Shown in pieces: positions 15,343-35,840 of a stretch of 45,511 bases of DNA. The translations under genes and the position numbers were made by a program. Below the pieces are notes generated by a model. The model made no database searches. It was not told where the DNA came from and worked only from the letters and a program-made list of their open reading frames with translations. Source of the stretch: Escherichia phage vB_Ec-G8; the sequence record PQ433350.1; one strand, written 5' to 3'. Position 1 is the stretch's first letter. Every line of letters begins with the position of its first letter.

Positions 15343-15762
15343 ATGCAAATTACAGACAAAGAAGATTACATTGAGTTTTACCCAGGCCCGGTTAAGTCAT
15401 GCCCGAAAGAGGATGACGAACAAATCTTTTGCTCTGATTGGGTTAAGTATAACTACCCGGAGATGGTATTTTTCCACTGCGTAAATGAGGGCAAGAAAAC
15501 CATTGGTCAAGCAAGAAAAGATCAGGCGAAGGGGTTGCTTAAGGGCGTATCAGACTGCTTATTCCTGATACCTGAATCGCTGCGAGGGAAATATCCTTTC
15601 GGGGCTATAGAGCTAAAGAGGGCTGGTAAAACTCAAGCAAGTCCAGTCAGCGAAGAACAGAAAGCATTTCTGAAAAGTGTAATGGAATCAGGCGGTTTCT
15701 CGGCAGTCGCCTACGGACGTGAGGGTTTTCTTGCAGCATTCAAAGAAATGATTTCAAAATAG
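15343..15762 (+). CDS. VRR-NUC domain nuclease
   Basis: 139 aa; PD-(D/E)xK-type motif (SDCLFLIP...GAIELKR); start overlaps the helicase stop; TAG stop inside a boundary element. Confidence 0.7.
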   Translation: MQITDKEDYIEFYPGPVKSCPKEDDEQIFCSDWVKYNYPEMVFFHCVNEGKKTIGQARKDQAKGLLKGVSDCLFLIPESLRGKYPFGAIELKRAGKTQASPVSEEQKAFLKSVMESGGFSAVAYGREGFLAAFKEMISK

Positions 15763-15777
15763 CACGAATTGCTAAAG
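15759..15777 (+). promoter_or_regulatory. Boundary element copy, precedes 15839 ORF
   Basis: ATAGCACGAATTGCTAAAG with upstream TAG stop inside. Confidence 0.6.
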
Positions 15778-15838
15778 ACGTTTCGGTGAGTTGGTGTATT
15801 ATCTATTCATCGAAACGAAACTCAGAGAGAGAAACAAA

Positions 15839-16033
15839 ATGACCACTATCTATACCGGTAAAATCTACGAATCACGCAAAACTGGTTATGAATATGAATT
15901 AGTAATCACCGCTGATTGTTATGTTCTTGATGATGGTGAAGGTTATGCTTTCGAAGTTAGTCCAACCTACAAAGATGATTTAGAAACTGTTAAAAACGCA
16001 TTTGGCGAAAAATTTGATGAGGTGTCAGAATGA
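15839..16033 (+). CDS. Hypothetical protein (64 aa)
   Basis: ATG 15839 preceded by the conserved element leader (CATCGAAACGAAA...GAGAGAGA); ORF-track start 15791 is TTG. Confidence 0.5.
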   Translation: MTTIYTGKIYESRKTGYEYELVITADCYVLDDGEGYAFEVSPTYKDDLETVKNAFGEKFDEVSE

Positions 16034-16188
16034 GAGAGGCAATCGTAAACTGGAAAACTGGAGAGGATTCAAAATTCCTCTTCAATACATTCACGCAATA
16101 CATTGACAAGTTTGTTTTCGTAATTGATGGTGGATGTGAGGTTGTTGTGCCTATTAAGCTAATTGATGGATTTGGGGTTACGGAGTAA
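16030..16188 (+). CDS. Hypothetical small protein (52 aa)
   Basis: ATGA overlap with the upstream stop and TAATG overlap with the downstream start; below the ORF-track size cut-off. Confidence 0.35.
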   Translation: MREAIVNWKTGEDSKFLFNTFTQYIDKFVFVIDGGCEVVVPIKLIDGFGVTE

Positions 16189-16409
16189 TGAAAAAATTAA
16201 CTTTTGATAAGCAATGGGAGCTATTTCAGGCAATGGCGGCTCAGGAGTTGACTAAGGCTGGATATAAACATGATGTTTGGGATTTGGCGTGGTGCCTTGA
16301 TTATAGTTTTGAAGAAGACTACCTAAACACTGATATTGAAACATGGCGCGACCGTATAGTTGCTGATATCGAAGAAATGAAAAAAGATTGCCAGGAGGAT
16401 TTCTTATGA
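16188..16409 (+). CDS. Hypothetical acidic protein (73 aa)
   Basis: Translationally coupled ORF; strongly Asp/Glu-rich. Confidence 0.5.
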   Translation: MKKLTFDKQWELFQAMAAQELTKAGYKHDVWDLAWCLDYSFEEDYLNTDIETWRDRIVADIEEMKKDCQEDFL

Positions 16410-16606
16410 TTAACGAACGACCATTATTTATTAAATTCAAACCAAGAAATAATAAACCTAGAATTGATATTGACGAATACTTACTTAAATCAGGTGAAGA
16501 ATATTTTGTTCTTGAAATATCCCCAAATTCAGACGGGTTCATAGTTAAAAATGGCGCTGGGATATTAGTTAGAGTATCAGTATTAGACGCGGAGATTGTA
16601 AGATGA
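16406..16606 (+). CDS. Hypothetical protein (66 aa)
   Basis: ATG 16406 with GGAGGA RBS, overlapping the upstream stop (ATGA). Confidence 0.45.
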   Translation: MINERPLFIKFKPRNNKPRIDIDEYLLKSGEEYFVLEISPNSDGFIVKNGAGILVRVSVLDAEIVR

Positions 16607-16728
16607 AAATCGTAGATAAAGAGATGTTTATGGTTGCCCAGCATTTTGCTGAATTTGCAGTTGAGTTTCAATCAGAAGAGCATTGGATGTGTGCCCGTGA
16701 GTATTTGAAACTGGCATATGGCTTATGA
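16603..16728 (+). CDS. Hypothetical small protein (41 aa)
   Basis: ATGA-coupled micro-ORF between two listed ORFs. Confidence 0.3.
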   Translation: MKIVDKEMFMVAQHFAEFAVEFQSEEHWMCAREYLKLAYGL

Positions 16729-16967
16729 TAGTTGAAACAGGAAGGGCCGCAGTCTGGGCCCACTGCGCAGAGGCCGGACTTCAGGATGACATAAAGATGA
16801 TATCTAAGTATTTCGATATAAAAGATATCAGTGTCATTTTTAACGGTAAGTTTACTTACATGGATGAAAGGCCGCGTAAGTATGTCAGGGTTAAGCCTGG
16901 TATCACGATAAACACGAATGAGTTCCTTAGAGAGCAGGGATTCAAATTTAAGATAACAAAGGGTTAG
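16725..16967 (+). CDS. Hypothetical protein (80 aa)
   Basis: ATGA-coupled ORF. Confidence 0.5.
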   Translation: MIVETGRAAVWAHCAEAGLQDDIKMISKYFDIKDISVIFNGKFTYMDERPRKYVRVKPGITINTNEFLREQGFKFKITKG

Positions 16968-16969
16968 TT

Positions 16970-17221
16970 ATGTTGGGATTAGATTTTCAGCCTGAGCATT
17001 ATGATTTAGTACATGGGCAAAGTGGCGCAAAGTTTAGGGCGATACCTATTGCTGATTGGTTCCCTCCTGATTATGTAGATGTGAATGCAAAAACTAAAGA
17101 CGGTAAGTGGGTGCAGATTTACTACTCAGCAGCTTGCGGAAACCTGTGCATGACTGACCTTGACCAGAAGTTAACAATTAGTGCTGATTTGATTGACTAC
17201 TGGTTGAAAGAAGTTGAATGA
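16970..17221 (+). CDS. Hypothetical protein (83 aa)
   Basis: ORF with AAGGG RBS. Confidence 0.5.
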   Translation: MLGLDFQPEHYDLVHGQSGAKFRAIPIADWFPPDYVDVNAKTKDGKWVQIYYSAACGNLCMTDLDQKLTISADLIDYWLKEVE

Positions 17222-18477: not shown

Positions 18478-18530
18478 CTATACCCGCGAAAGCGGGTATT
18501 ATTGTTTTATAGAAACGAGAGGAGATTGAA

Positions 18531-19004: not shown

Positions 19005-19020
19005 CACTTTTTGCCTAAAG
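19001..19020 (+). promoter_or_regulatory. Boundary element copy, precedes 19086 ORF
   Basis: ATAGCACTTTTTGCCTAAAG, hairpin, CATAAT, CACATCGAAACGAG leader. Confidence 0.6.
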
Positions 19021-19085
19021 CATGCCGTAGAAATGCGGCATAATCACCACATCGAAACGAGATGAAACAAACGAGGAAACACAAG

Positions 19086-22486: not shown

Positions 22487-22543
22487 TACTTCTCTCCGTG
22501 TTGTTTCTGAGCGGCCATTATATCAGCGACCGCTTATAATTCA

Positions 22544-22562
22544 TTATCAATTTGTGCTATTT
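22544..22562 (-). promoter_or_regulatory. Boundary element variant, precedes P-loop ATPase gene
   Basis: Minus-strand AAATAGCACAAATTGATAA followed by TGaTATAAT extended -10. Confidence 0.6.
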
Positions 22563-22911
22563 ACAGGTATTGAGCCTCGAAGTGGTACGTCTGGCAAAGA
22601 GTGTAGAAACCAACATCCTCGCTACGGTAGAGCTGCCAGGCATTACCATCCTCATCGTAAATGTAACCAGCATTTTGCCCCAATCCTGCATGAAGTGCCA
22701 CCTGGTAACGTTTCTCTTCTTTAAAGTCTTTTTTAACTCCTGATTTATGGTTAACCTTCGTGCAGTAAATAGTTTTGGTCTTAATGTATTTGCCGCGCTC
22801 TTCCAGGTTAATCCATTTGCCATCTTTCTTGATTTGTTCTACACCATCTTTAACTCGAGCTTTGTATAATACGTTATCGTTGCTAATGAAGTTTTTAGTA
22901 ATCGTTGTCAT
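22561..22911 (-). CDS. Hypothetical protein (116 aa)
   Basis: ORF preceded on the minus strand by element leader (TCATCGAAACGAAACACAAAAAGG); TAA stop abuts an element. Confidence 0.5.
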   Translation of the reverse strand: MTTITKNFISNDNVLYKARVKDGVEQIKKDGKWINLEERGKYIKTKTIYCTKVNHKSGVKKDFKEEKRYQVALHAGLGQNAGYIYDEDGNAWQLYRSEDVGFYTLCQTYHFEAQYL

Positions 22912-22973
22912 TTTGTTTGCCTTTTTGTGTTTCGTTTCGATGAGATGAATATATAGGAAAAGCCCAGAAGGGC

Positions 22974-22993
22974 TTTAGCAATTAGTGCTATTT
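22974..22993 (-). promoter_or_regulatory. Boundary element copy, precedes 22911 ORF
   Basis: Minus-strand AAATAGCACTAATTGCTAAA + hairpin + TCATCGAAACGAAAC leader. Confidence 0.6.
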
Positions 22994-23047
22994 CGTTACT
23001 TTTCTATCGTGCCATGAAAGTTGTCGAGCATTTTAATGTACGCCTTG

Positions 23048-23230
23048 CTATCTATAAAATTCGGCCTCTTCTGTAGTTACTGGTATTGTGTAATTATTTA
23101 CCTTAATAATCCATGTATAACCATCATAATCAATCGCATCATAAACATCACCAACATTAACGCCTATTTTGTCAAGACTATCTGAACTTGTTTCATATGT
23201 TACTGTATTATCTGTAATTATTACTTTCAT
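23048..23230 (-). CDS. Hypothetical protein (60 aa)
   Basis: ATG 23230 preceded by element leader (CCATCGAAACGTGAGG); ORF-track start 23290 rejected. Confidence 0.45.
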   Translation of the reverse strand: MKVIITDNTVTYETSSDSLDKIGVNVGDVYDAIDYDGYTWIIKVNNYTIPVTTEEAEFYR

Positions 23231-23282
23231 TTTGTACCTCACGTTTCGATGGAAAGATAATAGCGCATCCTTGCGACTCTGT

Positions 23283-23301
23283 TTTAGCAATTCGTGCTAT
23301 T
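23283..23301 (-). promoter_or_regulatory. Boundary element copy, precedes 23230 ORF
   Basis: Minus-strand AATAGCACGAATTGCTAAA; upstream ORF stops at the internal TAA. Confidence 0.6.
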
Positions 23302-23448
23302 ACGCGCCTTTTCTATCGCCTTGAGCATGACTTCATGACTTTCTAGCAAGTCCTCGCGGAACCAGTCGCCGCAAGGCCAGCCCTTTCCGCTGTAGGCGCT
23401 GATTACCTCCAGATCGAAATAATTTATTTCAGATGGCAGAAGCATCAT
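23284..23448 (-). CDS. Hypothetical small protein (54 aa)
   Basis: ATGA-coupled to the upstream gene; reads into the element and stops at the TAA inside TTGCTAAA. Confidence 0.35.
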   Translation of the reverse strand: MMLLPSEINYFDLEVISAYSGKGWPCGDWFREDLLESHEVMLKAIEKARNSTNC

Positions 23449-23687
23449 TTCACCTCGTCAAAAGTTGCAATCCCAGGAATAAACATCCAAACCTTCCAAC
23501 CAGCGATGGCAATCCAGCAAGAATCGTGCTTGTGCGGTCGCTCAGCGCCATTAATCACCCATTCGTTCGGGATTGCCTTGCCGTTAATGATTAGCGGATC
23601 AGCGTCGTATACAGAGCCTTTAACGAACGGTGTTAACACTTTCTTGTCGGTGCTATTGATAACGTTAGTGCAGATTATTTTAGTCAT
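23445..23687 (-). CDS. Hypothetical protein (80 aa)
   Basis: ORF with GAGG RBS. Confidence 0.5.
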   Translation of the reverse strand: MTKIICTNVINSTDKKVLTPFVKGSVYDADPLIINGKAIPNEWVINGAERPHKHDSCWIAIAGWKVWMFIPGIATFDEVK

Positions 23688-23871
23688 TTACAACCTCGTA
23701 CTCACCTTTATAAACAGCGACCTCTTCATTCACATTGTTGACAATCACTGCTAAACAAAGAGCACCCAAATATTTTACCACTTCGTACTCGCATCCAAAC
23801 GTCAGACCATAGTCCTCACATGAACGTCCACTGCAATCTAAATCTTCGAATTTAACTAGCTTAATTTTCAT
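23680..23871 (-). CDS. Hypothetical protein (63 aa)
   Basis: ATG 23871 with GAGGA RBS; N-terminal extension in the ORF track overlaps the next micro-ORF. Confidence 0.45.
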   Translation of the reverse strand: MKIKLVKFEDLDCSGRSCEDYGLTFGCEYEVVKYLGALCLAVIVNNVNEEVAVYKGEYEVVND

Positions 23872-23881
23872 ACCTAAATCC

Positions 23882-24058
23882 TCAAAATGGAATGCAGTGA
23901 TTACAACCTTCACCACTACAACATAAATCTTCATCTTCTGACTGGAATTGCTTTGCCAGATCAATATCCAACTTTCCGCGCAACACAAGGTCTGTATAAT
24001 CTTCGTTCAGCCCAATCAGTGTGCATTCGTGGCGTAACTCGTCTTTATTCTCTTTCAT
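23882..24058 (-). CDS. Hypothetical Cys-rich small protein (58 aa)
   Basis: ATGA-coupled; C-terminal CCSGEGCNHC cluster. Confidence 0.35.
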   Translation of the reverse strand: MKENKDELRHECTLIGLNEDYTDLVLRGKLDIDLAKQFQSEDEDLCCSGEGCNHCIPF

Positions 24059-24255
24059 TTCTCTTCACCTTTTAAATTATGACGCTTGATCAGAACTTCA
24101 ACCCATTCTTGCGCGTCTTCCTCTCTCATGAAGAAGCTTAACTTTGGGTACTTGTGAAAACCTTTAAGTTCAACAATCCAATGACCACCTTCGTAACTAT
24201 AACTAACTTTCTTCTCTGTCATTTCGTTACCTTTTGAGTTTTTTATTATCGACAT
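24055..24255 (-). CDS. Hypothetical protein (start uncertain: 24255 or 24222)
   Basis: First leftward ORF after the divergent control region; ORF-track N-terminus (to 24357) covers hairpin-rich probable leader. Confidence 0.35.
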   Translation of the reverse strand: MSIIKNSKGNEMTEKKVSYSYEGGHWIVELKGFHKYPKLSFFMREEDAQEWVEVLIKRHNLKGEEK

Positions 24256-24459
24256 CTCTTCAACGTACTCGCTACAACTCGGGATTTTACTCCCGGCCCG
24301 GCATCCTAACAAAAGGACCCGCTCGGCGCTTTGGTGGGTGAGGTAACGCTTCCTCACATTGCGCGGTAGTATTTACCCTTTTTAGTCTCTTTCGAGAGTG
24401 ACTCAGAGTCTGCTACCGTGTCGATGAGATTAAGTATACGCATAGTTATCCACACTGTC

Positions 24460-24478
24460 TTTAGCAAAAAGTGCTATT
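24460..24478 (-). promoter_or_regulatory. Boundary element copy at the leftward edge of control region B
   Basis: Minus-strand AATAGCACTTTTTGCTAAAG. Confidence 0.55.
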
Positions 24479-24492
24479 CGTTAGATTTATGT

Positions 24493-24577
24493 ATTGTTGC
24501 AGATATTGCAATGATTCACATGATTATTGCACATATAGCAATATTGTTTCAGATGCAATGATGTTTTTGATTGTTGC
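24493..24577. repeat. Iteron-like cluster of TTGCA-core repeats
   Basis: ATTGTTGC at both ends (24494, 24570), TGCAATGAT twice (24507, 24554), further ATTGCA/AGCAAT units at about 10-11 bp spacing. Confidence 0.5.
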
Positions 24578-24665
24578 GAAAAGTGAAATGAAGTGGTGAG
24601 TGAGTGAATGAAAGATGGATGGGCTACCATACAAGTTGATTTTGATTCTGGCTGAGCCATTTTTG

Positions 24666-24990
24666 CGTATACGCGTTATAAAAGTTATGCCTTGTAGATG
24701 ATGCCACCCTCCGTAGGAATCGTGTACGCCTATAACGCTGAATTACGCAATGGTTACACTATAATATCTATACATAACAACCATTTAGTAGTATTATTAT
24801 TATTATATATATTACTATGTATATCATGTATATCCCCCTTGCGGGGAGGGTCGATAGTTTTTCTATGAAAATGACATTTTCTATATATATAAGGATAGGT
24901 ATATACCCTCCGCGTTTTCCGCGGAAATTAATCTACAGGCAAATTACATGCACTATAGCTGGGCTGAGGTGGCAAAAAACGTAACCAGGG
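24666..24990. repeat. Divergent control region B (homologous to 5627-5895)
   Basis: Shared blocks 24743-24782, 24794-24830, 24953-24966; extra hairpins (CCCC-ttgc-GGGG; CCGCG-ttttc-CGCGG). Confidence 0.7.
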
Positions 24991-25082
24991 CCAATATAAA
25001 CACGAAATAACACTTGATAACGTGTATATGTGTGTTATTATGGATTCATCTTAACGAAGGGCAACCAATCAGGAGTAATGAA

Positions 25083-25601
25083 ATGTCAGAACATAAAGAA
25101 GTAGTAAGTCTCGGTGAAGTGGTTCGTTACATGGCTACCAAGGCTTTGAATGACGATACTAAATCATTTGCTGTCCCACTGCGCATGATTGCACAACAGG
25201 TGTACGGACTTGATAAGACAGAGATGACGAGAGTGTACGAAGAAGACCTGGCGCCCGGAGGCAAGTATCACCTCAAGAAGCTGAAGGCGTCATACGTTTC
25301 AAACACAGTAAGCCGGATGCCAGAAGTCAAGGCTGCTAACGTCCGGTCAATGTTCTCACTGAAGGACATGGAGTTTAATGAGAAGGAGGTTCGATGTGCG
25401 GTAATCTCACTCGTACCAGGCGCTATCAATACCGGGTCGCGCAATAAAGCAGAAGCAGAGAAGGAGGCAGCTATCATTGAAAAATTCAAATCTCGATTGC
25501 TCAAGCTGTCACCAAGCGTTGCTGGACTTGAAGGTGAAGAACTTAAGGGCGCGGTGACAATGATTAACGCTTATCAGGAAATGATTAAGGAGACTAAGTA
25601 G
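25083..25601 (+). CDS. Hypothetical early protein (172 aa)
   Basis: ATG 25083 with AGGAG SD 7 nt upstream; first rightward gene after control region B. Confidence 0.55.
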   Translation: MSEHKEVVSLGEVVRYMATKALNDDTKSFAVPLRMIAQQVYGLDKTEMTRVYEEDLAPGGKYHLKKLKASYVSNTVSRMPEVKAANVRSMFSLKDMEFNEKEVRCAVISLVPGAINTGSRNKAEAEKEAAIIEKFKSRLLKLSPSVAGLEGEELKGAVTMINAYQEMIKETK

Positions 25602-25691
25602 TAGACTACCATACCACTTGCGGTACAGTGAGGAGGAGGTTGAGAAGGCGATTGAGTTCTACCGGAAAGCTAAATCACTCCTGAATGGTAA

Positions 25692-25710
25692 ATAGCACTT
25701 TTTGCCTAAC
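25692..25710 (+). promoter_or_regulatory. Boundary element copy, precedes 25772 ORF
   Basis: ATAGCACTTTTTGCCTAAC, GCCA-agga-TGGC hairpin, TGgCATAAT, CATCGAAACGAGAG leader. Confidence 0.65.
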
Positions 25711-25771
25711 GCGGTAATGCCAAGGATGGCATAATAGCCTCATCGAAACGAGAGATACCAAGGAAAACAAA

Positions 25772-25960
25772 ATGTCTAAGCGCATCACTAAAGAACTTAA
25801 AGTACTGAACAAAGAAAACGTAATCACCATCCTGACAATGTTTGGCTACAACGAAGAATCTGCCATTGCAAAGGTTGAATCTGGTTACGATGTTGCGGTA
25901 CGAAGCATGCCGGAAGCAACCTCAAAAGGTATCGCCGACTTCCTGGCTACATGTTACTAA
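25772..25960 (+). CDS. Hypothetical protein (62 aa)
   Basis: Preceded by a complete boundary element and leader. Confidence 0.5.
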   Translation: MSKRITKELKVLNKENVITILTMFGYNEESAIAKVESGYDVAVRSMPEATSKGIADFLATCY

Positions 25961-26015
25961 GTTATCTTACAAGGCATCTCGTGGGGTGCCTCAGTAAGAC
26001 AACCGGAGATAGAGC

Positions 26016-26201
26016 ATGAAAACCAAAATGATTCACAAGTCAGAAGTAAAAATTGGCGACACGGTAATTCACTGCGGTGAGATGAAGACGGTTGGCATGG
26101 AAACATTTGGCAAGGATGAGTTTATGGGACTCCTACTGTGGGGTGATAGCTATCGCTGCGGCTACAAGATGGTTGAGGTTGTAACTGATGTTAAGTTTTG
26201 A
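26016..26201 (+). CDS. Hypothetical protein (61 aa)
   Basis: GGAGA RBS; TGA stop abuts an element. Confidence 0.5.
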   Translation: MKTKMIHKSEVKIGDTVIHCGEMKTVGMETFGKDEFMGLLLWGDSYRCGYKMVEVVTDVKF

Positions 26202-26219
26202 ATAGCACGAATTGCTAAA
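26202..26219 (+). promoter_or_regulatory. Boundary element copy, precedes 26287 ORF
   Basis: TGA-ATAGCACGAATTGCTAAA; TGaTATAGT extended -10 downstream. Confidence 0.6.
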
Positions 26220-26286
26220 CCTTCCGCAAGGCCATTTGATATAGTGGTCTTGTTGAAGCAAAACAATCAATCATGGGGTTACACAA

Positions 26287-26469
26287 ATGCAAGTTTATAA
26301 ATCACCTGGCGGCGCTCGTTACGTTGTTGTTGATGGCAGGGTGTACTGCAAGCCGCTAACCGGATTCACATTTCGCTCGTCAATGACGGTGGATCGATAC
26401 CTTGAGTTGATAGGTTGGGGATTTCTTAGGTTTGAAAAGGTAATCAAGCCTATAATGACCGTCAAATAG
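26287..26469 (+). CDS. Hypothetical protein (60 aa)
   Basis: ORF between two element copies; weak RBS. Confidence 0.45.
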   Translation: MQVYKSPGGARYVVVDGRVYCKPLTGFTFRSSMTVDRYLELIGWGFLRFEKVIKPIMTVK

Positions 26470-26484
26470 CACGAATTGTTAAAA
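26466..26484 (+). promoter_or_regulatory. Boundary element variant
   Basis: ATAGCACGAATTGTTAAAA; leader CCACACATCAACCACAAG. Confidence 0.5.
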
Positions 26485-26661
26485 TGGGATTCATCCTGAA
26501 TGGTATGATCCACACATCAACCACAAGAATGGAAGTTAAGTGACGATATACGAACATAAATTCAGCAGTAGGGGTATTGATATGCTCCTGCACTATGTAG
26601 ACGAAAAATACGCAAATCTCATGCTTAATACGCATGGCGGCACAATAACGAGGATTGAGAT

Positions 26662-26925
26662 ATGAGTAAGTACAACCGTGAGATTATCGGCCTGGATGGG
26701 GAAGTAACCACAGTGGATGTATATCGAGTCCTGGATGCATTCCAGGTAACAGACCCAGCTATACAGCACGCAATCAAGAAGATGCTGTGCACTGGACTTA
26801 GAGGGCATAAGGACTATCTTACTGACATTGAAGACTCCATTGAATCACTGCAAAAAGCCAGGGAACTTTACGATCAGCGCAAGAGTTACGAGCGGCGATA
26901 CAATTTATCTTTTACAGATAAATAG
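26662..26925 (+). CDS. Hypothetical protein (87 aa)
   Basis: CGAGGA RBS; TAG stop lies inside an element. Confidence 0.5.
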   Translation: MSKYNREIIGLDGEVTTVDVYRVLDAFQVTDPAIQHAIKKMLCTGLRGHKDYLTDIEDSIESLQKARELYDQRKSYERRYNLSFTDK

Positions 26926-26939
26926 CACGAATTGCTAAA
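26922..26939 (+). promoter_or_regulatory. Boundary element copy, precedes 26995 ORF
   Basis: ATAGCACGAATTGCTAAA, hairpin, TGtTATAGT extended -10, CACACCAAACGAGAGG. Confidence 0.65.
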
Positions 26940-26994
26940 CCCGCTCAGAAGGGTTTTGTTATAGTTAGTTCACACCAAACGAGAGGAAATAAAG

Positions 26995-27213
26995 ATGATT
27001 ACTATTAACCTGTCAGATAAACAAGCAGCAGAACTCAAGTCCATGCTTTCAATCTTTGAGAAGCCAAATGACCAGGTAATTGCCAAAGAGGTAGTGGCTC
27101 AGATTAACAACCAGCAATTCGACGTAAGTGACTTCGAGTCATCGCGCCAGTACGAGGTAATGAGTGTTAATGCTGCATACCTGACTAACTGGGATAATGC
27201 GACTAAGAAATGA
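26995..27213 (+). CDS. Hypothetical protein (72 aa)
   Basis: Preceded by element + leader (CACACCAAACGAGAGG). Confidence 0.5.
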   Translation: MITINLSDKQAAELKSMLSIFEKPNDQVIAKEVVAQINNQQFDVSDFESSRQYEVMSVNAAYLTNWDNATKK

Positions 27214-27359
27214 TTTTATACATACATGAGTACTGGACGGGGAAGTTTAACACAGTTCGACATGTCCGGGTTTACGAATATTATGTAAATGCATTCAATC
27301 AGCAGAAGGTTCTTGGTGGCACCATCAAGGTTTGCGATGTTGTGGATGAGATTTACTAA
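27210..27359 (+). CDS. Hypothetical small protein (49 aa)
   Basis: ATGA-coupled; TAA stop immediately precedes an element. Confidence 0.35.
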   Translation: MILYIHEYWTGKFNTVRHVRVYEYYVNAFNQQKVLGGTIKVCDVVDEIY

Positions 27360-27378
27360 ATAGCACGAATTGCTAAAG
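27360..27378 (+). promoter_or_regulatory. Boundary element copy, precedes 27434 ORF
   Basis: TAA-ATAGCACGAATTGCTAAAG, TGtTATAGT, CCACATCAAAACTAACGAGG. Confidence 0.65.
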
Positions 27379-27433
27379 CAGTCTTGTGGTAATTTGTTAT
27401 AGTTACCACATCAAAACTAACGAGGTTATAAGA

Positions 27434-27538
27434 ATGAGTGAATTAATTAAAACTATCGCGGACTATCCATTTGCTTCGCTTTTTCTTGCTCTTGCAATAT
27501 ATGAAATTGTAAAGATTATTGTCAAATGTATTAAATAG
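27434..27538 (+). CDS. Putative 34-aa membrane peptide
   Basis: Hydrophobic core FASLFLALAIYEIVKIIV; bounded by elements on both sides. Confidence 0.3.
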   Translation: MSELIKTIADYPFASLFLALAIYEIVKIIVKCIK

Positions 27539-27553
27539 CACTAATTTCTAAAA
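27535..27553 (+). promoter_or_regulatory. Boundary element variant, precedes 27609 ORF
   Basis: ATAGCACTAATTTCTAAAA, TGcTATAGT, CCACATCAAAACGAAACAGG. Confidence 0.6.
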
Positions 27554-27608
27554 CATTATCGGGGTATCTTGCTATAGTTACCACATCAAAACGAAACAGG
27601 AAGCAGAA

Positions 27609-27788
27609 ATGAGATTTCAACAATCAGAACCTAAACTCCAGGCTAACCACTTCGACGGATACGCAACATTCATCATCGCTCAGGCGTGCGGTGTGCGTGA
27701 GGAGCCACAGGTTCACACCATCCACTTAACCGAAGAGCAAGCTCGAGAACTGGCTTACGAAATTCTTGAGCAATTGAATCGAATTTAA
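27609..27788 (+). CDS. Hypothetical small protein (59 aa)
   Basis: Preceded by element + leader (CACATCAAAACGAAACAGGAAG). Confidence 0.4.
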   Translation: MRFQQSEPKLQANHFDGYATFIIAQACGVREEPQVHTIHLTEEQARELAYEILEQLNRI

Positions 27789-27837
27789 TTGGCCCAAGGC
27801 GCATTATAACGAACGATAATTTAAGTAAGGTGATTCT

Positions 27838-27999
27838 ATGATTAAGGTTGTTTATGTAGGCGAGAGTGATTATGTGGCACTAATTCAGCGTGGTGACGTG
27901 TTATTTGCAGAGCTGAGTGATGATGGTAATTGCTACATCGTAAAGAACAAGAATGGCGAGGATATTTACCTCTCAAAAGATGAGGTCATTATTTACTAA
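27838..27999 (+). CDS. Hypothetical small protein (53 aa)
   Basis: AAGGTGA RBS. Confidence 0.4.
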   Translation: MIKVVYVGESDYVALIQRGDVLFAELSDDGNCYIVKNKNGEDIYLSKDEVIIY

Positions 28000-28121
28000 T
28001 GGATAACTACGAATCACCAAGTCAGTGGGCCAGGCGAATGCAGGACGAAGCCAAAACTGGTGAAGAGGCGATGGCTTACTACGAGCTGGCGAAAATGTGG
28101 CAAGGACGGAGTGCAGAATGA
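27999..28121 (+). CDS. Hypothetical small protein (40 aa)
   Basis: TAATG-coupled micro-ORF. Confidence 0.3.
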   Translation: MDNYESPSQWARRMQDEAKTGEEAMAYYELAKMWQGRSAE

Positions 28122-28261
28122 GCTTCATTGAATACGCAATTGCATGTGAACGACTGGTCTTTGATATGAAGACCTTCCACTGGTTCATCATCAAGGATTT
28201 AATCAAGCCGTACAAGCAAGGTGTTACGCCAGAGGCTTTTGTTAAGTCATTCTATAAATAG
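28118..28261 (+). CDS. Hypothetical small protein (47 aa)
   Basis: ATGA-coupled; TAG stop inside an element. Confidence 0.35.
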   Translation: MSFIEYAIACERLVFDMKTFHWFIIKDLIKPYKQGVTPEAFVKSFYK

Positions 28262-28275
28262 CACGAATTGCTAAA
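28258..28275 (+). promoter_or_regulatory. Boundary element copy, precedes 28332 ORF
   Basis: ATAGCACGAATTGCTAAA, GCCA-tgga-TGGC hairpin, TATAAT, CCACATCAACACAACGAGAG. Confidence 0.65.
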
Positions 28276-28331
28276 CGCAGTCGCCATGGATGGCATATAA
28301 TTACCACATCAACACAACGAGAGATTGAGAA

Positions 28332-28571
28332 ATGTTCGGACTAAATGAAGCGATGTTCAATGCTGTAAAGCGCCAGGCCGCAAAGTTGAACGAAGAGTAC
28401 ACCAATCTATCGCCAAAGCAGCGTAAGGACGATAAGCAGGTTGCGGCATTGATTTCAAAGATGTGGGAGCCGGTTTTCACAATCATTAGTAGAGATCGAT
28501 TTGTGTGGGTATCTGGTTATCTTAAGGGCCGTGTTGGTCATGACGAAAATGGGAATAGCCTTTATGAGTGA
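28332..28571 (+). CDS. Hypothetical protein (79 aa)
   Basis: Preceded by element + leader (CACATCAACACAACGAGAGATTGAG). Confidence 0.5.
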   Translation: MFGLNEAMFNAVKRQAAKLNEEYTNLSPKQRKDDKQVAALISKMWEPVFTIISRDRFVWVSGYLKGRVGHDENGNSLYE

Positions 28572-28650
28572 GTTAACAATCTGGTTTATCGCTGGGTTGA
28601 TTACGTGGGCTTATTTTTTAATCGTTTAGACGGATATTGTTAAAAAGAGC

Positions 28651-28679
28651 TTGCATCACTGACTGGAAGTGCATAATAT
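28651..28679 (+). promoter_or_regulatory. Sigma70-like promoter upstream of the tRNA region
   Basis: TTGCAT - 17 nt - TAATAT, with TG upstream of the -10 (TGcATAATA). Confidence 0.45.
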
Positions 28680-28845
28680 TAACCACGTAGGCAAACGAGG
28701 CCACCAAGTGGCAACGGCGCACGGAGCGCAACTACTAAGTCCGTTGCTCATTAAGTAGCGTATGCGGCATTAAGACCTAGCGCAAATAGGCAGATTAACC
28801 GGCTGTATCAGGCAGCCCCGGAGCCGTAACCGGGACTCATTCAAA

Positions 28846-28923
28846 GCTCTGCTAGCTCAACGGGAAAGAAGCAACGACCTTCTAAGTCGTAGGTTACTGG
28901 TTCGAATCCAGTGCGGAGCGCCA
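28846..28923 (+). tRNA. tRNA-Arg (anticodon UCU)
   Basis: Cloverleaf folded by hand: 7-bp acceptor stem (GCTCTGC/GCGGAGC with one G-U), anticodon stem ACGAC/GTCGT, loop CTTCTAA (anticodon TCT at 28881-28883), T-arm ACTGG-TTCGAAT-CCAGT, discriminator G and encoded CCA. Confidence 0.85.
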
Positions 28924-29024
28924 ATAAAACGCCAGATTAGCTATCTGGAAGTCTTCGAGTGCAAGCCGCTGGTTATCCTTGTGGTAATTAAGCTTGCAGC
29001 GGAGCGCCAATTAAGGAGCTCATT

Positions 29025-29207
29025 ATGTGGGATGTGAAGTTGTCCATTCGCTTAATGGGCCGCTCATGCAAAAATTGCACTCAAGAATACATCGCGTCAG
29101 TTGCCGCAATCAGCGCTGAGGATGCGGTAGCAAAAGTAAAGGAGATGTCAGGCGCTGACCCTGACACCCACAAATTCCTGGTAGCTTACGTTCGTGAGCG
29201 AAAGTAA
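29025..29207 (+). CDS. Hypothetical protein (60 aa)
   Basis: AAGGAG RBS; followed by terminator. Confidence 0.5.
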   Translation: MWDVKLSIRLMGRSCKNCTQEYIASVAAISAEDAVAKVKEMSGADPDTHKFLVAYVRERK

Positions 29208-29251
29208 AAAGTGTTATACCCTCGTTAAGTTTAGTTTCTCTCGTTGTTTTG

Positions 29252-29274
29252 GCCCTCGCTTGAGGGCTTTTTTT
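29252..29274 (+). terminator. Rho-independent terminator before terminase genes
   Basis: GCCCTC-gctt-GAGGGC + T7. Confidence 0.75.
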
Positions 29275-29294
29275 CGTCTGTAATATGGTATAAT
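29268..29294 (+). promoter_or_regulatory. Promoter-like extended -10 (TGgTATAAT) upstream of the terminase genes
   Basis: TGGTATAAT at 29286-29294 directly after the terminator T-run; CGTCTGTA box shared with 35863-35870. Confidence 0.4.
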
Positions 29295-29317
29295 CTGACC
29301 TCAACAAAGGAGGATTT

Positions 29318-29824
29318 ATGAGCAAAGCAGCATTAAAGATGGGTGAGGGAAATTTCAAGGCGCTATACAACAAGAAGTATGGCGACATTGCTATGGTGGC
29401 AATCAACCGCAAGTACACGCCTGAGGAAGTTTTCGATTTCGCCGTTAGATACTTCTCCTGGGCTGAGAGCGAGGCAATTAAGGCTATTGAGACGGCTGCT
29501 TTCCAGGGTGTGGTTAGCGAGAGCCTCGTACACAAGCCTAGAGTATTCACCTTAACTGGGCTGGCGCTCTTTATGGGTGTCAATATCAATAGATTCGCTC
29601 GCTGGCGTACTGAGGCTGGATACTCTGATGTGATGGAATTCATTGATAACGTTATTTACGAGCAGAAGTACCAGCTTGGTGTCGCAGGCATCATCAACTC
29701 TACCATCGTTGGTAAAGAGCTAGGAATTGATAAGCCGCAGGAGATTAAGATTAGCAACAACTCAACAGCTAACGATGTTGACAGTATGAAGGAAGCTCTG
29801 GAATCTGTAATTAGCAAGCTATAA
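29318..29824 (+). CDS. Terminase small subunit
   Basis: 168 aa ORF immediately upstream of the large terminase; AAGGAGGA RBS; assignment by position and size. Confidence 0.7.
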   Translation: MSKAALKMGEGNFKALYNKKYGDIAMVAINRKYTPEEVFDFAVRYFSWAESEAIKAIETAAFQGVVSESLVHKPRVFTLTGLALFMGVNINRFARWRTEAGYSDVMEFIDNVIYEQKYQLGVAGIINSTIVGKELGIDKPQEIKISNNSTANDVDSMKEALESVISKL

Positions 29825-29841
29825 CAATAAGAGGGTATAAC

Positions 29842-31407
29842 ATGTCTTTAGTATGGGAAGAAATGACCATTCAGGAAAAGATGGCTGTTAAGGCGATATC
29901 AGAACACAGCTTCGAGGGTTTCCTTCGTTGCTGGTTCCAGATTACACAAGGCGAACGATACATCCCTAACTGGCATCACAAGTACTTGTGCAGAATCATT
30001 GACGAGATTATTGCAGGCGAAAGAAAGGACACCATTATCAACATAGCACCAGGCAGCGGAAAGACGGAAATTGCCTCAATCCACTTCCCGGCCTATTCGA
30101 TGGTTAAGCTTAGGAAGGTGCGCAACCTTAACATCTCTTTTGCTGACTCCCTGGTTAAGCGTAACTCGAAGCGAGTGCGTGACCTTATCAAGTCTCAAGA
30201 ATTTCAGTCACTCTGGCCATGCAAGTTTGGCACTTGCAAAGACGATGAGCTTCAGGTTCTTGATGAGAGTGGCAAGGTTAGATTTGAGTCAATATCAAAG
30301 GCGGCTGGAGGCCAGATTACTGGCGCTCGCGGTGGGTACATAACCGAAACATACAGCGGAGCCGTTCTTTTGGATGACTTTGACAAACCCGCAGATATGT
30401 TATCAGCAGTGTACCGCTCGAATAATCACGTAATGCTTAAAAATACGATTCGCTCACGTCGAGCCAGTTCTGTAAAAGGCAAAGCGACACCAATCATTTC
30501 GATACAGCAGCGGCTTCACGTCAATGACTCAACCTGGTTCATGATGGAGGGGGGTATGGGTATCGACTTTGACTTGGTTAAGATACCGGCTCTGGTTACT
30601 GAGGATTACATCGACTCGCTCCCTGACTGGATTAAAGATCAGTTTGCTGAGGACGTACTAAGCAGCGAATATATTGAGCGAGATGGCGTAAAGTACTACA
30701 GCTACTTTCCTAAAAAGGAATCCGTAAACGACCTGGTGGCAATGTGGGATAGCGACCCCTACACTTTCCTCAGCCAGTATCAGCAGGAGCCAGTAGCGCT
30801 GGGTGGCAACCTAATTAACGTGGACTGGTTCCAGCGAATCAGTGATACGTTCAGACCTCCAGCTAAGTACGACTATCGATTCATAACTTGCGATACCGCA
30901 ATGACCACTAAAAGTTACAGCGACTTCTCTGTTCTTCAGTTGTGGGGCTATAAAGATGCTAAGATTTACCTTATTGATCAGCGCAGGGGTAAATGGGAGG
31001 CCCCAGAGTTGGAGGCTGAACTGCTGGACTTCGAGAAGAAATCAAGGGCAACCAGTCAGTCAGATGGTATCCTCAGAAAGATTATTATCGAGAAGAAAGC
31101 GTCTGGTATCGGCCTGATTCAATCAGCTGGCAGGGTTATGCGAACACCGATAGAGCCATACGTACCGGATAATGACAAGCTAACCAGGGTGATGAGTGCA
31201 CTACCACAGATTAAGGCTGGTAACGTAGTTCTTCCAGAGTCATCGCCGTGGCTAAACGGATTGCTCACTGAGGTTGCGGCTTTTACGGCAGATGACTCGC
31301 ATAAGCACGACGACCAAATTGACTGTCTAACAATGGCGGTAAACCTTGTGCTTAACATCGCGGATGATCCTAAGGCGAGACTGATGCGCATAGCGGGAAT
31401 GAAATAG
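29842..31407 (+). CDS. Terminase large subunit
   Basis: 521 aa; N-terminal ATPase with Walker A (APGSGKT), C-terminal nuclease-like acidic residues; TAG stop inside an element. Confidence 0.9.
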   Translation: MSLVWEEMTIQEKMAVKAISEHSFEGFLRCWFQITQGERYIPNWHHKYLCRIIDEIIAGERKDTIINIAPGSGKTEIASIHFPAYSMVKLRKVRNLNISFADSLVKRNSKRVRDLIKSQEFQSLWPCKFGTCKDDELQVLDESGKVRFESISKAAGGQITGARGGYITETYSGAVLLDDFDKPADMLSAVYRSNNHVMLKNTIRSRRASSVKGKATPIISIQQRLHVNDSTWFMMEGGMGIDFDLVKIPALVTEDYIDSLPDWIKDQFAEDVLSSEYIERDGVKYYSYFPKKESVNDLVAMWDSDPYTFLSQYQQEPVALGGNLINVDWFQRISDTFRPPAKYDYRFITCDTAMTTKSYSDFSVLQLWGYKDAKIYLIDQRRGKWEAPELEAELLDFEKKSRATSQSDGILRKIIIEKKASGIGLIQSAGRVMRTPIEPYVPDNDKLTRVMSALPQIKAGNVVLPESSPWLNGLLTEVAAFTADDSHKHDDQIDCLTMAVNLVLNIADDPKARLMRIAGMK

Positions 31408-31421
31408 CACAAATTGCTAAA
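31404..31421 (+). promoter_or_regulatory. Boundary element copy inside late operon, precedes moron 31477
   Basis: ATAGCACAAATTGCTAAA, GCCA-cgga-TGGC, TATAGT, TTCACACAAAAGAGAGGAG. Confidence 0.65.
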
Positions 31422-31476
31422 CACTAAAGCCACGGATGGCGTATAGTTACTTCACACAAAAGAGAGGAGAAGAAAG

Positions 31477-31809
31477 ATGAAGGCAGTATTTAAAGGTTAT
31501 AAAAAAGCTGGTCGTTTGGAATTTACTATTGGTAAGATTTATGAGTTATCAGAAACACGCGGAGTGGGTGGATATATGGGGGTGACTGATGACGGTGGCT
31601 TTCGGGCAATATTTATCCCAGACAACATCTATGATTTCGAGGTGTTGATCCCAGATGAATTTATCGGTAAAGAAAGGCAATTCAAATATTACATCAATGG
31701 CGAAGCTGTTTCTAAAGTCAAGTTCGATGATACACTGTTATGCGTCAAGGAATTTAAATCTGATGGCATTGATACATCATCAATCAAGTTCGAAGTAAAA
31801 TTCGAGTAA
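31477..31809 (+). CDS. Hypothetical moron protein (110 aa), paralog of 43772-44137
   Basis: Own element + leader upstream and terminator downstream; shares GYKK N-terminal and FEV-x-FE C-terminal blocks with the 43772 ORF. Confidence 0.55.
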   Translation: MKAVFKGYKKAGRLEFTIGKIYELSETRGVGGYMGVTDDGGFRAIFIPDNIYDFEVLIPDEFIGKERQFKYYINGEAVSKVKFDDTLLCVKEFKSDGIDTSSIKFEVKFE

Positions 31810-31830
31810 CCACAAAAGCTATGATAAACT

Positions 31831-31853
31831 AGCCCCTAAATGGGGCTTTTTTA
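31831..31853 (+). terminator. Terminator-RBS module before portal
   Basis: AGCCCC-taaat-GGGGCT + T6 then ATTGGAGA RBS. Confidence 0.75.
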
Positions 31854-31865
31854 TTGGAGAAAAAC

Positions 31866-33092
31866 ATGGTCAAGACAGACAGCTACGCCAATATCTTTCT
31901 AGGCGGCAGTGATGGTAGTGAGATTTACGGGAGCTTGCAGAACCAATCGCCTACAATTCTGGCTTCGCTTTATGCGGATAATGCACTGGTGCGTCGAATT
32001 ATCGACACAATCCCGGAGACGGCATTAGCGGCAGGATTCCACATTGACGGCATTGATGACGAGCCTGCATTCTGGTCTCGCTGGGACTATCTGGAGTTGA
32101 CAAGGCACATCAACGAAGCGTGGTCGTGGGCTAGATTGTTCGGTGGAGCGGCAATTGTCGCTATCGTTAAGGACAACAGAGCTCTAACAAGCCCAGTCAG
32201 AGAAGGTTCTGAGCTTGAAACTGTTCGCGTATACGACCGCACACAAGTAAAAGTCCAAACTCGAGAGGAGAATCCGCGCAACGCACGTTTTGGTAATCCA
32301 CTAACCTATCGCATCACCACTAATGAGAGCGATATGTTTTACGATGTGCATTACAGCCGCATTCATATCATCGACGGAGAGCGAATCCCTAACGTAATGC
32401 GTCGGCAAAATGATGGCTGGGGCCGTAGCGTTCTCTCCAGTGATATTCTTGACTCAATCAAGGATTACACCAACTGCGAACGACTAGCGACTCAACTGCT
32501 CAAGCGTAAACAGCAAGCGGTCTGGAAAGTCAAGGACCTGGCATTGCTTTGTGATGATAGTGAAGGAGTTGGCGCGGCTCGTTTACGTCTCGCTCAAGTT
32601 GATAACAACAGCGGAGTTGGTCAGGCAATTGGCATTGATGCGGAATCGGAAGAATACAGCATTCTGAACTCTGATATTGGTGGGATTGATGCGTTTCTGG
32701 ATAAGAAGTTTGATAGAATCGTTGCGCTGAGCGGTATTCATGAAATCATCTTGAAGAACAAAAACGTCGGCGGCTTATCATCAAGCCAGAATACAGCGCT
32801 TGAGACATTCCATAAGCTAGTAGATCGAAAGCGTAACGCTGAACTGCTGCCGATTCTCGGGTTCCTGATTCCGTTCATTTCAGACGAGCAAGAATGGTCA
32901 GTGGAGTTTAATCCTCTGGCTCAGGAATCAAGTAAAGATAAAGCGGAGACCCTTGAGAAGAACGTAAACAGTATAGCAACACTAATTGCAGCTGGCGCTA
33001 TGGATACTAGCGAAGCGCGTGATACACTACGAACTATCGCGCCAGAGATTAAGATTGGCGATGGCAATATCGAACCTAAAGAAACAGTCTAG
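31866..33092 (+). CDS. Portal protein
   Basis: 408 aa from ATG 31866 (GGAGA SD; ORF-track start 31854 is TTG); position after terminase. Confidence 0.85.
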   Translation: MVKTDSYANIFLGGSDGSEIYGSLQNQSPTILASLYADNALVRRIIDTIPETALAAGFHIDGIDDEPAFWSRWDYLELTRHINEAWSWARLFGGAAIVAIVKDNRALTSPVREGSELETVRVYDRTQVKVQTREENPRNARFGNPLTYRITTNESDMFYDVHYSRIHIIDGERIPNVMRRQNDGWGRSVLSSDILDSIKDYTNCERLATQLLKRKQQAVWKVKDLALLCDDSEGVGAARLRLAQVDNNSGVGQAIGIDAESEEYSILNSDIGGIDAFLDKKFDRIVALSGIHEIILKNKNVGGLSSSQNTALETFHKLVDRKRNAELLPILGFLIPFISDEQEWSVEFNPLAQESSKDKAETLEKNVNSIATLIAAGAMDTSEARDTLRTIAPEIKIGDGNIEPKETV

Positions 33093-33161
33093 GAAGCAAT
33101 GTCGACGACAGAGGAACCTAATGAATGATGAATTTGATGGCTTTTAGTGAGGAGAATTGGG

Positions 33162-34247: not shown

Positions 34248-34259
34248 GGAGTTATAAAC

Positions 34260-34769: not shown

Positions 34770-34786
34770 TAGTTAAGACTAAACTA

Positions 34787-34808
34787 ACCCGCTTCGGCGG
34801 GTTTTTTA
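34787..34808 (+). terminator. Rho-independent terminator (UUCG loop)
   Basis: ACCCGC-ttcg-GCGGGT + T6. Confidence 0.75.
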
Positions 34809-34892
34809 TTGCCTATCATCTCATCATTGCGTGGTCTAAAAACTCGTGTATAATGAACACGTAGACACCTAACTGAAAAGGAACAATAAAGA

Positions 34893-35834: not shown

Positions 35835-35840
35835 TAAATG

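Follow-up and report, generated by a model that had tools for sequence, protein, structure and literature searches.

The repeat considered here is a known one, the 21-nucleotide (nt) direct repeat (aaATAGCACnnnTTGnTAAAA) of the phages TLS, T1, Rtp and Rogue1, the role of which was left as an open question by the authors of the TLS study, who suggested a stoperator, an enhancer or an UP element; in the same field the small genes of the left arm are termed 'presumptive early' (PMC11447400). We analysed the 45,511-nt sequence of Escherichia phage vB_Ec-G8 (PQ433350.1), the whole of which is called the window below, and in particular an array of small genes on its plus strand (25083-28571) that is divided into cassettes by copies of a 20-bp element, ATAGCAC-NWW-TTGCTAAA-NN. 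This element has the sequence of the TLS, T1, Rtp and Rogue1 repeat, the same orientation relative to transcription and nearly the same distance to the start codon, which is about 76 nt in TLS and 73-85 nt here. What the present analysis adds to the TLS paper is a match of the repeat to the marbox, a fixed distance of 18 bp to an extended -10, stop codons embedded in the element and a clustering of homology breakpoints around it. The full explanation that fits best, and to which we give about the same weight as to its being wrong, is that the 20-mer would be a marbox, that the module it heads would be a class II promoter of the Mar/Sox/Rob type and that gene cassettes would be exchanged at these modules.

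Three other systems invite comparison. The PeSL cassettes of the T4-type phages RB49 and phi1 (PMC2839356) are like the modules described here in that an intergenic repeat carries the stop of the upstream gene, a promoter and the Shine-Dalgarno sequence and start of the next gene, in that a stem-loop often lies between the upstream element and the -10, as it does in some of the copies here, and in that they are concentrated at small genes of unknown function and at junctions of modular exchange. They differ in that PeSLs carry consensus -35 and -10 hexamers, whereas here a marbox-like 20-mer replaces the -35, and in that a terminator stem-loop is nearly universal in PeSLs whereas hairpins are found in a minority of the copies here. 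The stoperators of mycobacteriophage L5, with which the TLS authors compared their repeat (PMC11447400), are also short asymmetric repeats at gene ends that are oriented with transcription. Stoperators, however, are bound by a prophage repressor that silences read-through, whereas the repeats here each keep a fixed phase to a -10; neither a repressor nor an integrase was seen among the open reading frames (ORFs) scanned, which are a subset of those in the window. The third system is that of the host promoters of class II that respond to MarA, SoxS and Rob (RamA), such as micF, which share with the phage modules an asymmetric, forward marbox of 20 bp that overlaps the -35 and is centred at about -41, with 18 bp between it and the -10. 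The phage copies differ from these in that there are about 20 of them per genome, far more uniform than the host marboxes, and in that each is part of a module with an extended -10 and a conserved leader; that the host factors bind them is a prediction.

Exact matches to AYNGCACNNWNNRYYAAA in the window number 17 compared to 0.05 expected from shuffles, and the repeat is always on the transcribed strand. The distance from the 20-mer to the -10 hexamer is exactly 18 bp in all seven modules of the array and in 18 of the 23 copies in the window, and in T1, which belongs to a different subfamily, this geometry was found in 14 of 20 copies. The hexamer is TATAGT, TATAAT or TATGAT, except that the first module of the array (E1) has CATAAT, and in six of the seven array modules it is preceded by TGn to form an extended -10 (TGnTATAGT). 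A conserved A is found 7 nt downstream of the -10, and after it come the leader ATCGAAACGA... and the Shine-Dalgarno sequence. A complete module, with a span of 73-85 nt, thus consists of the upstream stop codon, the 20-mer, 18 bp of variable sequence with a hairpin at times, the extended -10, a leader that starts with A (AUCGAAACGA...) and a Shine-Dalgarno sequence. A sigma70 scan did not detect these modules, and no -35 hexamer was found at 16-18 bp. The hexamer TTGCTA of the repeat was considered as a -35 and was ruled out by its spacer to the -10, which is 22 bp and not 17. The gene upstream ends within or against the element in nearly all of 21 copies, its stop codon being supplied by the TAG of ATAGCAC in about 12 cases, by a TAA or TGA just before the element in six and by the TAA of GCTAAA in one. 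On the minus strand the element at 23284-23300 encodes the C-terminus of the gene m5 (AAT AGC ACG AAT TGC TAA, the last five residues NSTNC and the stop) and therefore the repeat can be read in the third frame up to its own TAA; a frequent TAA prefix and the repeat together close all three frames. The copies are dense in two places, seven of them in the 3.5-kb array and four in a 2-kb array on the minus strand, which is about 2 per kb; the 12 further copies that make up the 23 are spread over the other 40 kb at about 0.3 per kb. The full composite pattern occurs in at least 120 stretches on viral contigs of 31-53 kb, and the module is present in 578 phage records, nearly all of them of phages with hosts in the Enterobacteriaceae (Escherichia, Klebsiella, Shigella, Salmonella, Citrobacter and Enterobacter).

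The case for a marbox is made from sequence and geometry. The consensus of Martin and Rosner reportedly reads AYnGCACnnWnnRYYAAA, and the repeat, as ATAGCAC-GAA-TTGCTAAA, fits this form with 17 exact matches in the window when 0.05 would be expected. It also fits two published forms of the marbox, namely 'gcannwwntgnnaaa' (PMC12052159), with 17 exact matches compared to 1.0 expected, and 'CAC[G/T]-7X-AAA' (PMC8811837). Among 125 distinct copies any base can occupy position 8, and positions 9 and 10 are restricted to A or T, which is what a marbox predicts for these three positions that were left free in the search, and position 14 is C or T, which matches the Y of the marbox. Those positions that are conserved beyond a partial palindrome in the repeat, A1, C7, A17 and A18, are the ones that the marbox specifies. 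Class II promoters of the Mar/Sox/Rob type carry a marbox in the forward orientation that overlaps the -35 region and is centred near -41 (PMC12052159, PMC8811837), and the phage modules have both this orientation and this placement. When micF of E. coli MG1655 was measured it was found to have ACAGCACTGAATGTCAAAAC, 18 bp and TAGAAT, a gap equal to that in the phage; the marbox of the mar promoter, in reverse complement, is ATGCCACGTTTTGCTAAATC. A tblastn search of the window with MarA and SoxS gave nothing below E = 0.5, and no report linking the marbox to T1-like phages was found in the literature searched, most of it outside subscription journals.

If the module is a promoter of this type, host RNA polymerase carrying sigma70 would start from the extended -10, and the contact that is lost with the -35 would be made instead by a monomeric host activator of the AraC family (Rob, MarA or SoxS, or RamA in Klebsiella) positioned at about -41. 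The cassettes could then fire without any phage protein, which would fit early or continuous expression, and they would respond to the envelope and stress state of the host. The wider proposal that T1-like phages drive about 20 promoters per genome through host MarA, SoxS or Rob (RamA), those of every small-array cassette included, and that the module is also a cassette joint, is one that we hold tentatively and consider somewhat less probable than its opposite. If it is true, phage gene expression would be wired to the envelope, antibiotic, bile and oxidative stress signals that the host meets in the gut, and this would be, as far as we know, an unusual use of a host stress-activator family by a virulent phage throughout its genome. 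It would also make it possible to predict transcription units rationally across the hundreds of genomes of Drexlerviridae, a good many of them from phages used or proposed for phage therapy. The marbox match addresses the function of the repeat, which has been stated as an open question in the field.

The original prediction was that this stretch holds at least 14 ORFs of 34-172 amino acids (aa), several of them under 60 aa and many coupled through ATGA or TAATG, in cassettes bounded by the repeat element, and all of this was borne out. The 14 ORFs on the plus strand at 25083-28571 are of 172, 62, 61, 60, 41, 87, 72, 49, 34, 59, 53, 40, 47 and 79 aa; seven of the 14 are below 60 aa, and a sequence like a ribosome-binding site was scored at ten. 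A 15th ORF of 21 aa (28564-28629) is a predicted membrane peptide, and the coding density of the block is 0.80. Five junctions overlap, three by ATGA (g5/g6, g7/g8 and g12/g13), one by TAATG (g11/g12) and one by 8 nt (g14/g15). The repeat is present in seven copies, all on the plus strand and starting at 25692, 26202, 26466, 26922, 27360, 27535 and 28258, which gives eight cassettes of one to four genes each. The transcription unit extends from about 25045 through a tRNA-Arg(TCT) gene and g16 to the terminator at 29251-29268, and its parts, with the control region ahead of it, are as follows.

24480..25082, AT-rich divergent control region, with the minus-strand array on one side and g1 on the other
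25014-25041, sigma70-like promoter facing g1, TTGATA-16-TATTAT, with TG
25083..25601, plus strand, g1, 172 aa, DUF7174 (rtp1 family), first gene of the array
25602..25695, plus strand, gene remnant, the last 30 codons (RLPYHLRYSEEEVEKAIEFYRKAKSLLNGK, then stop)
25692..25771, plus strand, module E1: marbox-like 20-mer 25692-25711 (a variant with a 1-nt insertion), 18-bp gap, -10 CATAAT at 25730-25735, leader, ribosome-binding site
25772..25960, plus strand, g2, 62 aa, DUF7421 / phrog_7717
26016..26201, plus strand, g3, 61 aa, phrog_3623
26202..26286, plus strand, module E2: marbox 26202-26221, 18 bp, TGaTATAGT, -10 at 26240-26245
26287..26469, plus strand, g4, 60 aa, no PHROG, its stop being the TAG within E3
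26466..26539, plus strand, module E3: marbox 26466-26485, 18 bp, TGgTATGAT
26540..26665, plus strand, g5, 41 aa, GTG start, phrog_12148, ATGA-coupled to g6
26662..26925, plus strand, g6, 87 aa, rtp5 family, its stop being the TAG within E4
26922..26994, plus strand, module E4: marbox 26922-26941, 18-bp gap with a hairpin (26937-26956), TGtTATAGT
26995..27213, plus strand, g7, 72 aa, DUF7180
27210..27359, plus strand, g8, 49 aa, phrog_3955, ATGA-coupled to g7
27360..27433, plus strand, module E5: marbox 27360-27379, 18 bp, TGtTATAGT
27434..27538, plus strand, g9, hydrophobic peptide of 34 aa, variable cassette, its stop being the TAG within E6
27535..27608, plus strand, module E6: marbox 27535-27554, 18 bp, TGcTATAGT
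27609..27788, plus strand, g10, 59 aa, phrog_7411
27838..27999, plus strand, g11, 53 aa, phrog_38524
27999..28121, plus strand, g12, 40 aa, phrog_1312 (labelled DUF8272 in relatives), TAATG-coupled to g11
28118..28261, plus strand, g13, 47 aa, phrog_22596, ATGA-coupled to g12, its stop being the TAG within E7
28258..28331, plus strand, module E7: marbox 28258-28277, 18 bp, TATAAT at 28296-28301
28332..28571, plus strand, g14, 79 aa, phrog_303 (rtp15)
28564..28629, plus strand, g15, hydrophobic peptide of 21 aa with an 8-nt overlap with g14, 60 aa in several relatives
28846..28923, plus strand, tRNA-Arg(TCT), at the end of this unit
29025..29207, plus strand, g16, 60 aa, phrog_2919
29251..29268, plus strand, Rho-independent terminator closing the unit ahead of the small terminase gene

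In this unit g1 is the sole array gene without an element-type promoter, and the only internal terminator-like hairpin that was found by scan is the one at 26937-26956 in the spacer of E4.

Several observations weigh against the marbox. The repeat is more conserved than host marboxes are, and in it A3 and T11 are kept though neither of the two definitions specifies them, T12 is specified only in the published 15-mer form and position 19, which is A or C, agrees only in part with the Y of the 20-bp consensus AYnGCACnnWnnRYYAAAYn. The repeat also contains a 5-5-5 partial palindrome, TAGCA-N5-TGCTA, that is centred near -42, and this together with the extra conservation could reflect a dedicated dimeric binder, possibly encoded by the phage. 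The conservation matrix was made from copies selected by pattern, and the positions searched for are conserved partly by construction. The extended -10 may let these promoters work without any activator, and cells that are not under stress contain little MarA and SoxS, while their Rob is for the most part inactive; that a lytic phage which grows fast should depend on these proteins would be surprising. Since the family infects enteric bacteria anyway, nothing can be learned from the host distribution of the module. An operator for a phage-encoded DNA-binding protein, which would either activate middle-class promoters or silence in the manner of a stoperator, is one alternative. The palindrome, which is of 15 bp and placed near -42 where dimeric class II activators have their site, speaks for it, and so does the conservation in excess of the marbox-specified positions. 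Candidates for such a protein are g1 (DUF7174), the only array gene to have an ordinary sigma70-like promoter and one that is found throughout the family, as the repeat is, and the Cro-like helix-turn-helix protein (12772-13281) and the Rha protein (4782-5534) that are encoded by the phage; stoperator or enhancer roles are also what the TLS authors proposed (PMC11447400). The conservation is asymmetric, however, G4 being invariant whereas its palindromic partner C14 is C or T, and C7, A17 and A18 are conserved though they are outside the palindrome. T1-like phages are moreover described as virulent, and no repressor or lysogeny module was seen here among the ORFs scanned. We look on the operator as rather unlikely.

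A UP-like or context element of constitutive extended -10 promoters, with no dedicated factor and with its conservation due to spread by recombination, has in its favour that the TGn-TATAGT present in six of the seven modules can work without a -35 hexamer. UP elements are A/T tracts in the Estrem consensus, quite unlike a repeat in which G4, C5, C7 and G13 are invariant, and the strict phasing of 18 bp that is kept across subfamilies argues for contact with a protein. The element does lie at -50 to -31, which is partly the territory of UP elements, and the TLS authors noted this possibility; we find it improbable. The repeat could also act as RNA, a UAGCA-N5-UGCUA hairpin at the 3' end of the upstream message then serving as a signal for processing, stability or termination. 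The element does begin at the stop codon of the upstream gene and some spacers add a stronger, GC-rich hairpin, but the variants TCGCTA, TTTCTA and TTGATA break the stem without compensation, and folding that beats shuffled sequence (z <=-1.8) is limited to about 7 of 22 spacers, three of which fold strongly (18459, 19001 and 22991). The fixed distance to the -10 is furthermore a feature of the DNA, and a role as RNA seems to us very improbable indeed. Two more kinds of site were considered and rejected. A sigma54 site (TGGCAC-N5-TTGCW) would need GG where the repeat has AG, the two blocks are 2 bp too close (AG-N8-GC compared to GG-N10-GC) and a sigma70 -10 follows; a T4 MotA box and a site of the lambda CII type were rejected on spacing.

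When the block was compared with 21 relatives, 32 of 62 distinct end-points of homology fell in the module zones, which make up 18% of the region, whereas 10.9 were expected (p < 1e-4). Likewise, 30 of the 62 were within 12 nt of a gene start or stop compared to 10.1 expected, and in distant relatives (loci L014 and L015) the modules are the only DNA that matches. Part of this enrichment is due to matches from element to element, that is, between paralogous copies, and breakpoints are equally common at coupled gene junctions so that exchange is not confined to modules. A probable explanation is that the modules would act as islands of homology between unrelated cassettes, and that whole cassettes would be swapped, lost and gained there and at coupled junctions. 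Cassette exchange at the two kinds of site is partly shown by these alignments.

The window as a whole is a circularly permuted genome of a T1-like siphovirus. Homology assigns the phage, which is Rtp-like, to the Drexlerviridae, subfamily Braunvirinae, near Rtpvirus and Veterinaerplatzvirus. SU57, ACG-M12 and CEB_EC3a match its structural half (29000-45511) with about 89% identity over 92-96% of the length, while the region 25000-28700 is matched over more than 50% by no phage record. By position and homology the block is the counterpart of rtp1-rtp15 of Rtp and of SU57_0001-0019, with clear synteny, and it sits between the AT-rich divergent region and the small terminase gene (29318). In T1 the equivalent block (gp77-gp55) is the left-end one, and in the deposited record it falls within the terminal repeat. 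The region is thus shown to be the left-arm block of small genes, about 15 genuine protein genes that are all functionally uncharacterised. By itself such an array is ordinary, there being one in every T1-like phage, annotated as hypothetical proteins. This one has the same genomic position as those of Rtp, T1 and SU57 and contains homologues of rtp1, rtp5, rtp7 and rtp15 (g14 is the counterpart of rtp15, for which the Rtp record notes a similarity to T1 gp59), and downstream of the array there is a tRNA-Arg, just as in SU57 and 12210I. Unlike those left arms, the block has no polynucleotide kinase, Stp-like peptide or HNH gene, and g2-g4 derive from other lineages of Drexlerviridae. It also differs from that of its close relatives in that the second gene of their array is reduced here to its last 30 codons. 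The full gene, of 172-174 aa, is intact in close relatives (for example at 4917-5435 of the related locus L016), and the deletion begins exactly past the stop codon of g1; since only this remnant is left, the gene after g1 is dispensable. As for the tRNA, 11 large phage genes contain AGA at 11.8 per 1000 codons, which makes it jointly with CGC their commonest Arg codon, and its usage in E. coli is far lower; the tRNA-Arg(TCT) probably serves codon supply.

The original prediction had named a lack of coding-type conservation in relatives as the result that would count against these ORFs, and such conservation is present. Against the 21 related loci the substitutions at the three codon positions show an excess at the third, being 74/54/193 in g1, 100/46/338 in g6, 53/29/266 in g10, 23/35/157 in g13 and 12/9/113 in g16. 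Matches to PHROGs at E <1e-13 were obtained for 12 of the 16 ORFs g1-g16, and three of these 16 match a Pfam DUF (DUF7174, DUF7421 and DUF7180). The array ORFs are real protein-coding genes, as judged from their membership of PHROG and DUF families, from the third-position substitutions and from the protein homologues of g2-g4 and g9. Of the 15, ten occur in at least 17 of the 21 loci, a distribution that looks like that of a conserved backbone and not of a counter-defence island of fast turnover; g14 is found in all 21, g11 in 9, and only g2-g4, g9 and g11 are clearly variable. Homologues of g2-g4 and g9 at the protein level are found in other Drexlerviridae. At the DNA level close relatives have no match to g2-g3, and the two genes are kept together in phage ES (84% nt identity) and in other subfamilies, for example as bas07_0069/0070. 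Homologues of g4 with 44-68% aa identity are present in nine phage records, whereas g9 is 100% identical in CEB_EC3a and 79% identical in phiEB49 and is missing from most relatives. The array proteins may tentatively be divided into those with functions of a conserved backbone and those of the few accessory cassettes that vary (g2-g4, g9 and g11).

None of the array proteins had been expected to carry a recognisable enzymatic motif, and this held true, as Pfam, PHROGs and NCBIfam gave only DUF7174, DUF7421, DUF7180 and PHROGs of unknown function, with no NCBIfam family at cut-off for the small proteins. The model of g1 has a well-predicted alpha/beta domain at the N-terminus followed by two long helices at the C-terminus. 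The protein g6, which public records sometimes mislabel as 'terminase', aligns to the C-terminal part of PHROG families of 235-250 aa. A comparison with known anti-defence proteins had been suggested, and it did not support the label: when g1, g6, g14, a3, a4 and g11 singly and one concatenate of 24 further small proteins were searched by sequence against the PDB, none of these 30 proteins of three arrays matched a solved structure. Gp54 of Bas11, a non-essential protein of 66 aa, is a trigger of CapRel and is suspected by those who described it of acting in counter-defence (PMC11578894); this protein, the one small Drexlerviridae protein for which experimental data were found, was absent from the PDB matches of the 30. 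The 73-aa protein a3 (16188-16409), which was described as strongly acidic in the manner of DNA-mimic anti-restriction proteins, is moderately acidic, and the description was overstated: it has 18 D+E and 9 K+R, a net charge of -9 and a pI of 4.3, like several neighbours, and its acidity is no greater than that of a1 (-9, 65 aa) or m2 (-8, 58 aa). Its model is confident (pLDDT, the predicted local distance difference test, 89) and shows a small four-helix protein that in a Foldseek search of PDB folds gave no match below E = 5.9; these results lend a DNA mimic no positive support.

That the block is mainly an early island for host takeover and anti-defence, in which each small protein would disable a host function or defence and the acidic ones would be DNA mimics, seems to us doubtful on this evidence. 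In its support it can be said that the block comes directly after the AT-rich divergent promoter region, that the genes are small, mosaic and without enzymatic motifs, that the neighbouring gene has been lost here without loss of the phage and that a small Drexlerviridae protein, Gp54 of Bas11, is a known trigger of defence (PMC11578894). The homologous arrays of Rtp, T1 and others hold a polynucleotide kinase, and the Rtp record annotates a Stp-like peptide. In T4 the functions of polynucleotide kinase and Stp belong to the conflict with PrrC, and by analogy the kinase and the Stp-like peptide of the related arrays may be an indirect hint, and the only one, of a counter-defence theme. What speaks against such an island is that none of the 30 small proteins matches a solved anti-defence protein by sequence, that the ten genes present in most relatives are under purifying selection, unlike the turnover typical of counter-defence genes, and that a3 is only moderately acidic with a confident fold that no solved structure matches. 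'Early' and 'anti-defence' as labels for the array genes are guesses. If candidates for host interaction or counter-defence are to be ranked, the variable cassettes g2-g4, g9 and g11 may be the best ones and the first to consider. With regard to timing, element-type promoters are also found ahead of replication, portal-adjacent and tail genes (7662, 15759, 31404, 38510 and 43699), so that an early class is not defined by the element. The literature searched, most of it outside subscription journals, yielded no transcriptome for any T1-like phage.

Two further arrays of small genes are present in the window.

22541..24477, minus strand, array m1-m7 (genes from 24222 down to 22561) with four element-type promoters
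15759..17221, plus strand, third array, a1-a7, with one element at its head (15759); among its proteins is the acidic a3, of the rtp56 family

Both had been said to have the same architecture as the first. This is so for the minus-strand array, in which the marbox 20-mers are at 24458-24477, 23281-23300, 22972-22991 and 22541-22560, and is so only in part for the array at 15.8-17.2 kb, which has the one element at 15759, the next being at 18459. In the minus-strand array m2 (58 aa, 5 Cys) and m3 (63 aa, 4 Cys), encoded at 23680-24058, are small, acidic, Cys-rich proteins of PHROGs of unknown function that may bind metal. An AT-rich repeat of 96 nt, which contains TATTATTATTATTATATATATATTACT, is found in two copies of 85% identity at 5638-5733 and 24735-24830, so that both divergent intergenic regions of the genome hold one copy; the copy at 5638-5733 is in a stretch weakly similar to T1 192-274, near the left end of T1. 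This repeat could be a part of early promoter hubs, of a pac site or of an origin region.

Elsewhere in the window, the HNH endonuclease gene at 18531-19004 (PF13392) forms a single-gene cassette in 18459-19047 with element-type promoters on both sides (18459 and 19001), and in some relatives (loci L017, L019 and L020) an HNH gene is found instead between the two terminase genes. At 11725-11744 on the plus strand there is an orphan repeat that is antisense to minus-strand genes of the tail fibre/primase region; it lacks a -10 at the distance of 18 bp and has a terminator-like hairpin after it, and T1 has a similar orphan repeat (34902, plus strand) between its tail-fibre and primase genes. The Cro-like gene (12772-13281, minus strand) was matched to PF14549 with E = 4.5e-6, which is below the Pfam gathering score. 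Divergent from it is a degenerate element-type promoter (13258, plus strand) that precedes an ORF of 664 aa (13347-15341), an arrangement that resembles gp23 (annotated as a transcriptional regulator) and gp22 (annotated as a helicase) of T1, and the Cro-like gene and this promoter may form an autoregulatory switch. In the late structural region similar rho-independent terminators, made of a GC hairpin and then TTTTTTATT, are present at 31821-31855, 34776-34810, 38473-38507, 39498-39532 and 42898-42932. In three cases (31843, 42920 and 44174) such terminators run straight into GGAGAAA and ATG, and this layout matches the 'transcripton' layout described for T1. Finally, a CAG/CAA tract at 8757-8816 encodes a poly-Gln run near the C-terminus of a 138-aa ORF (8427-8843).

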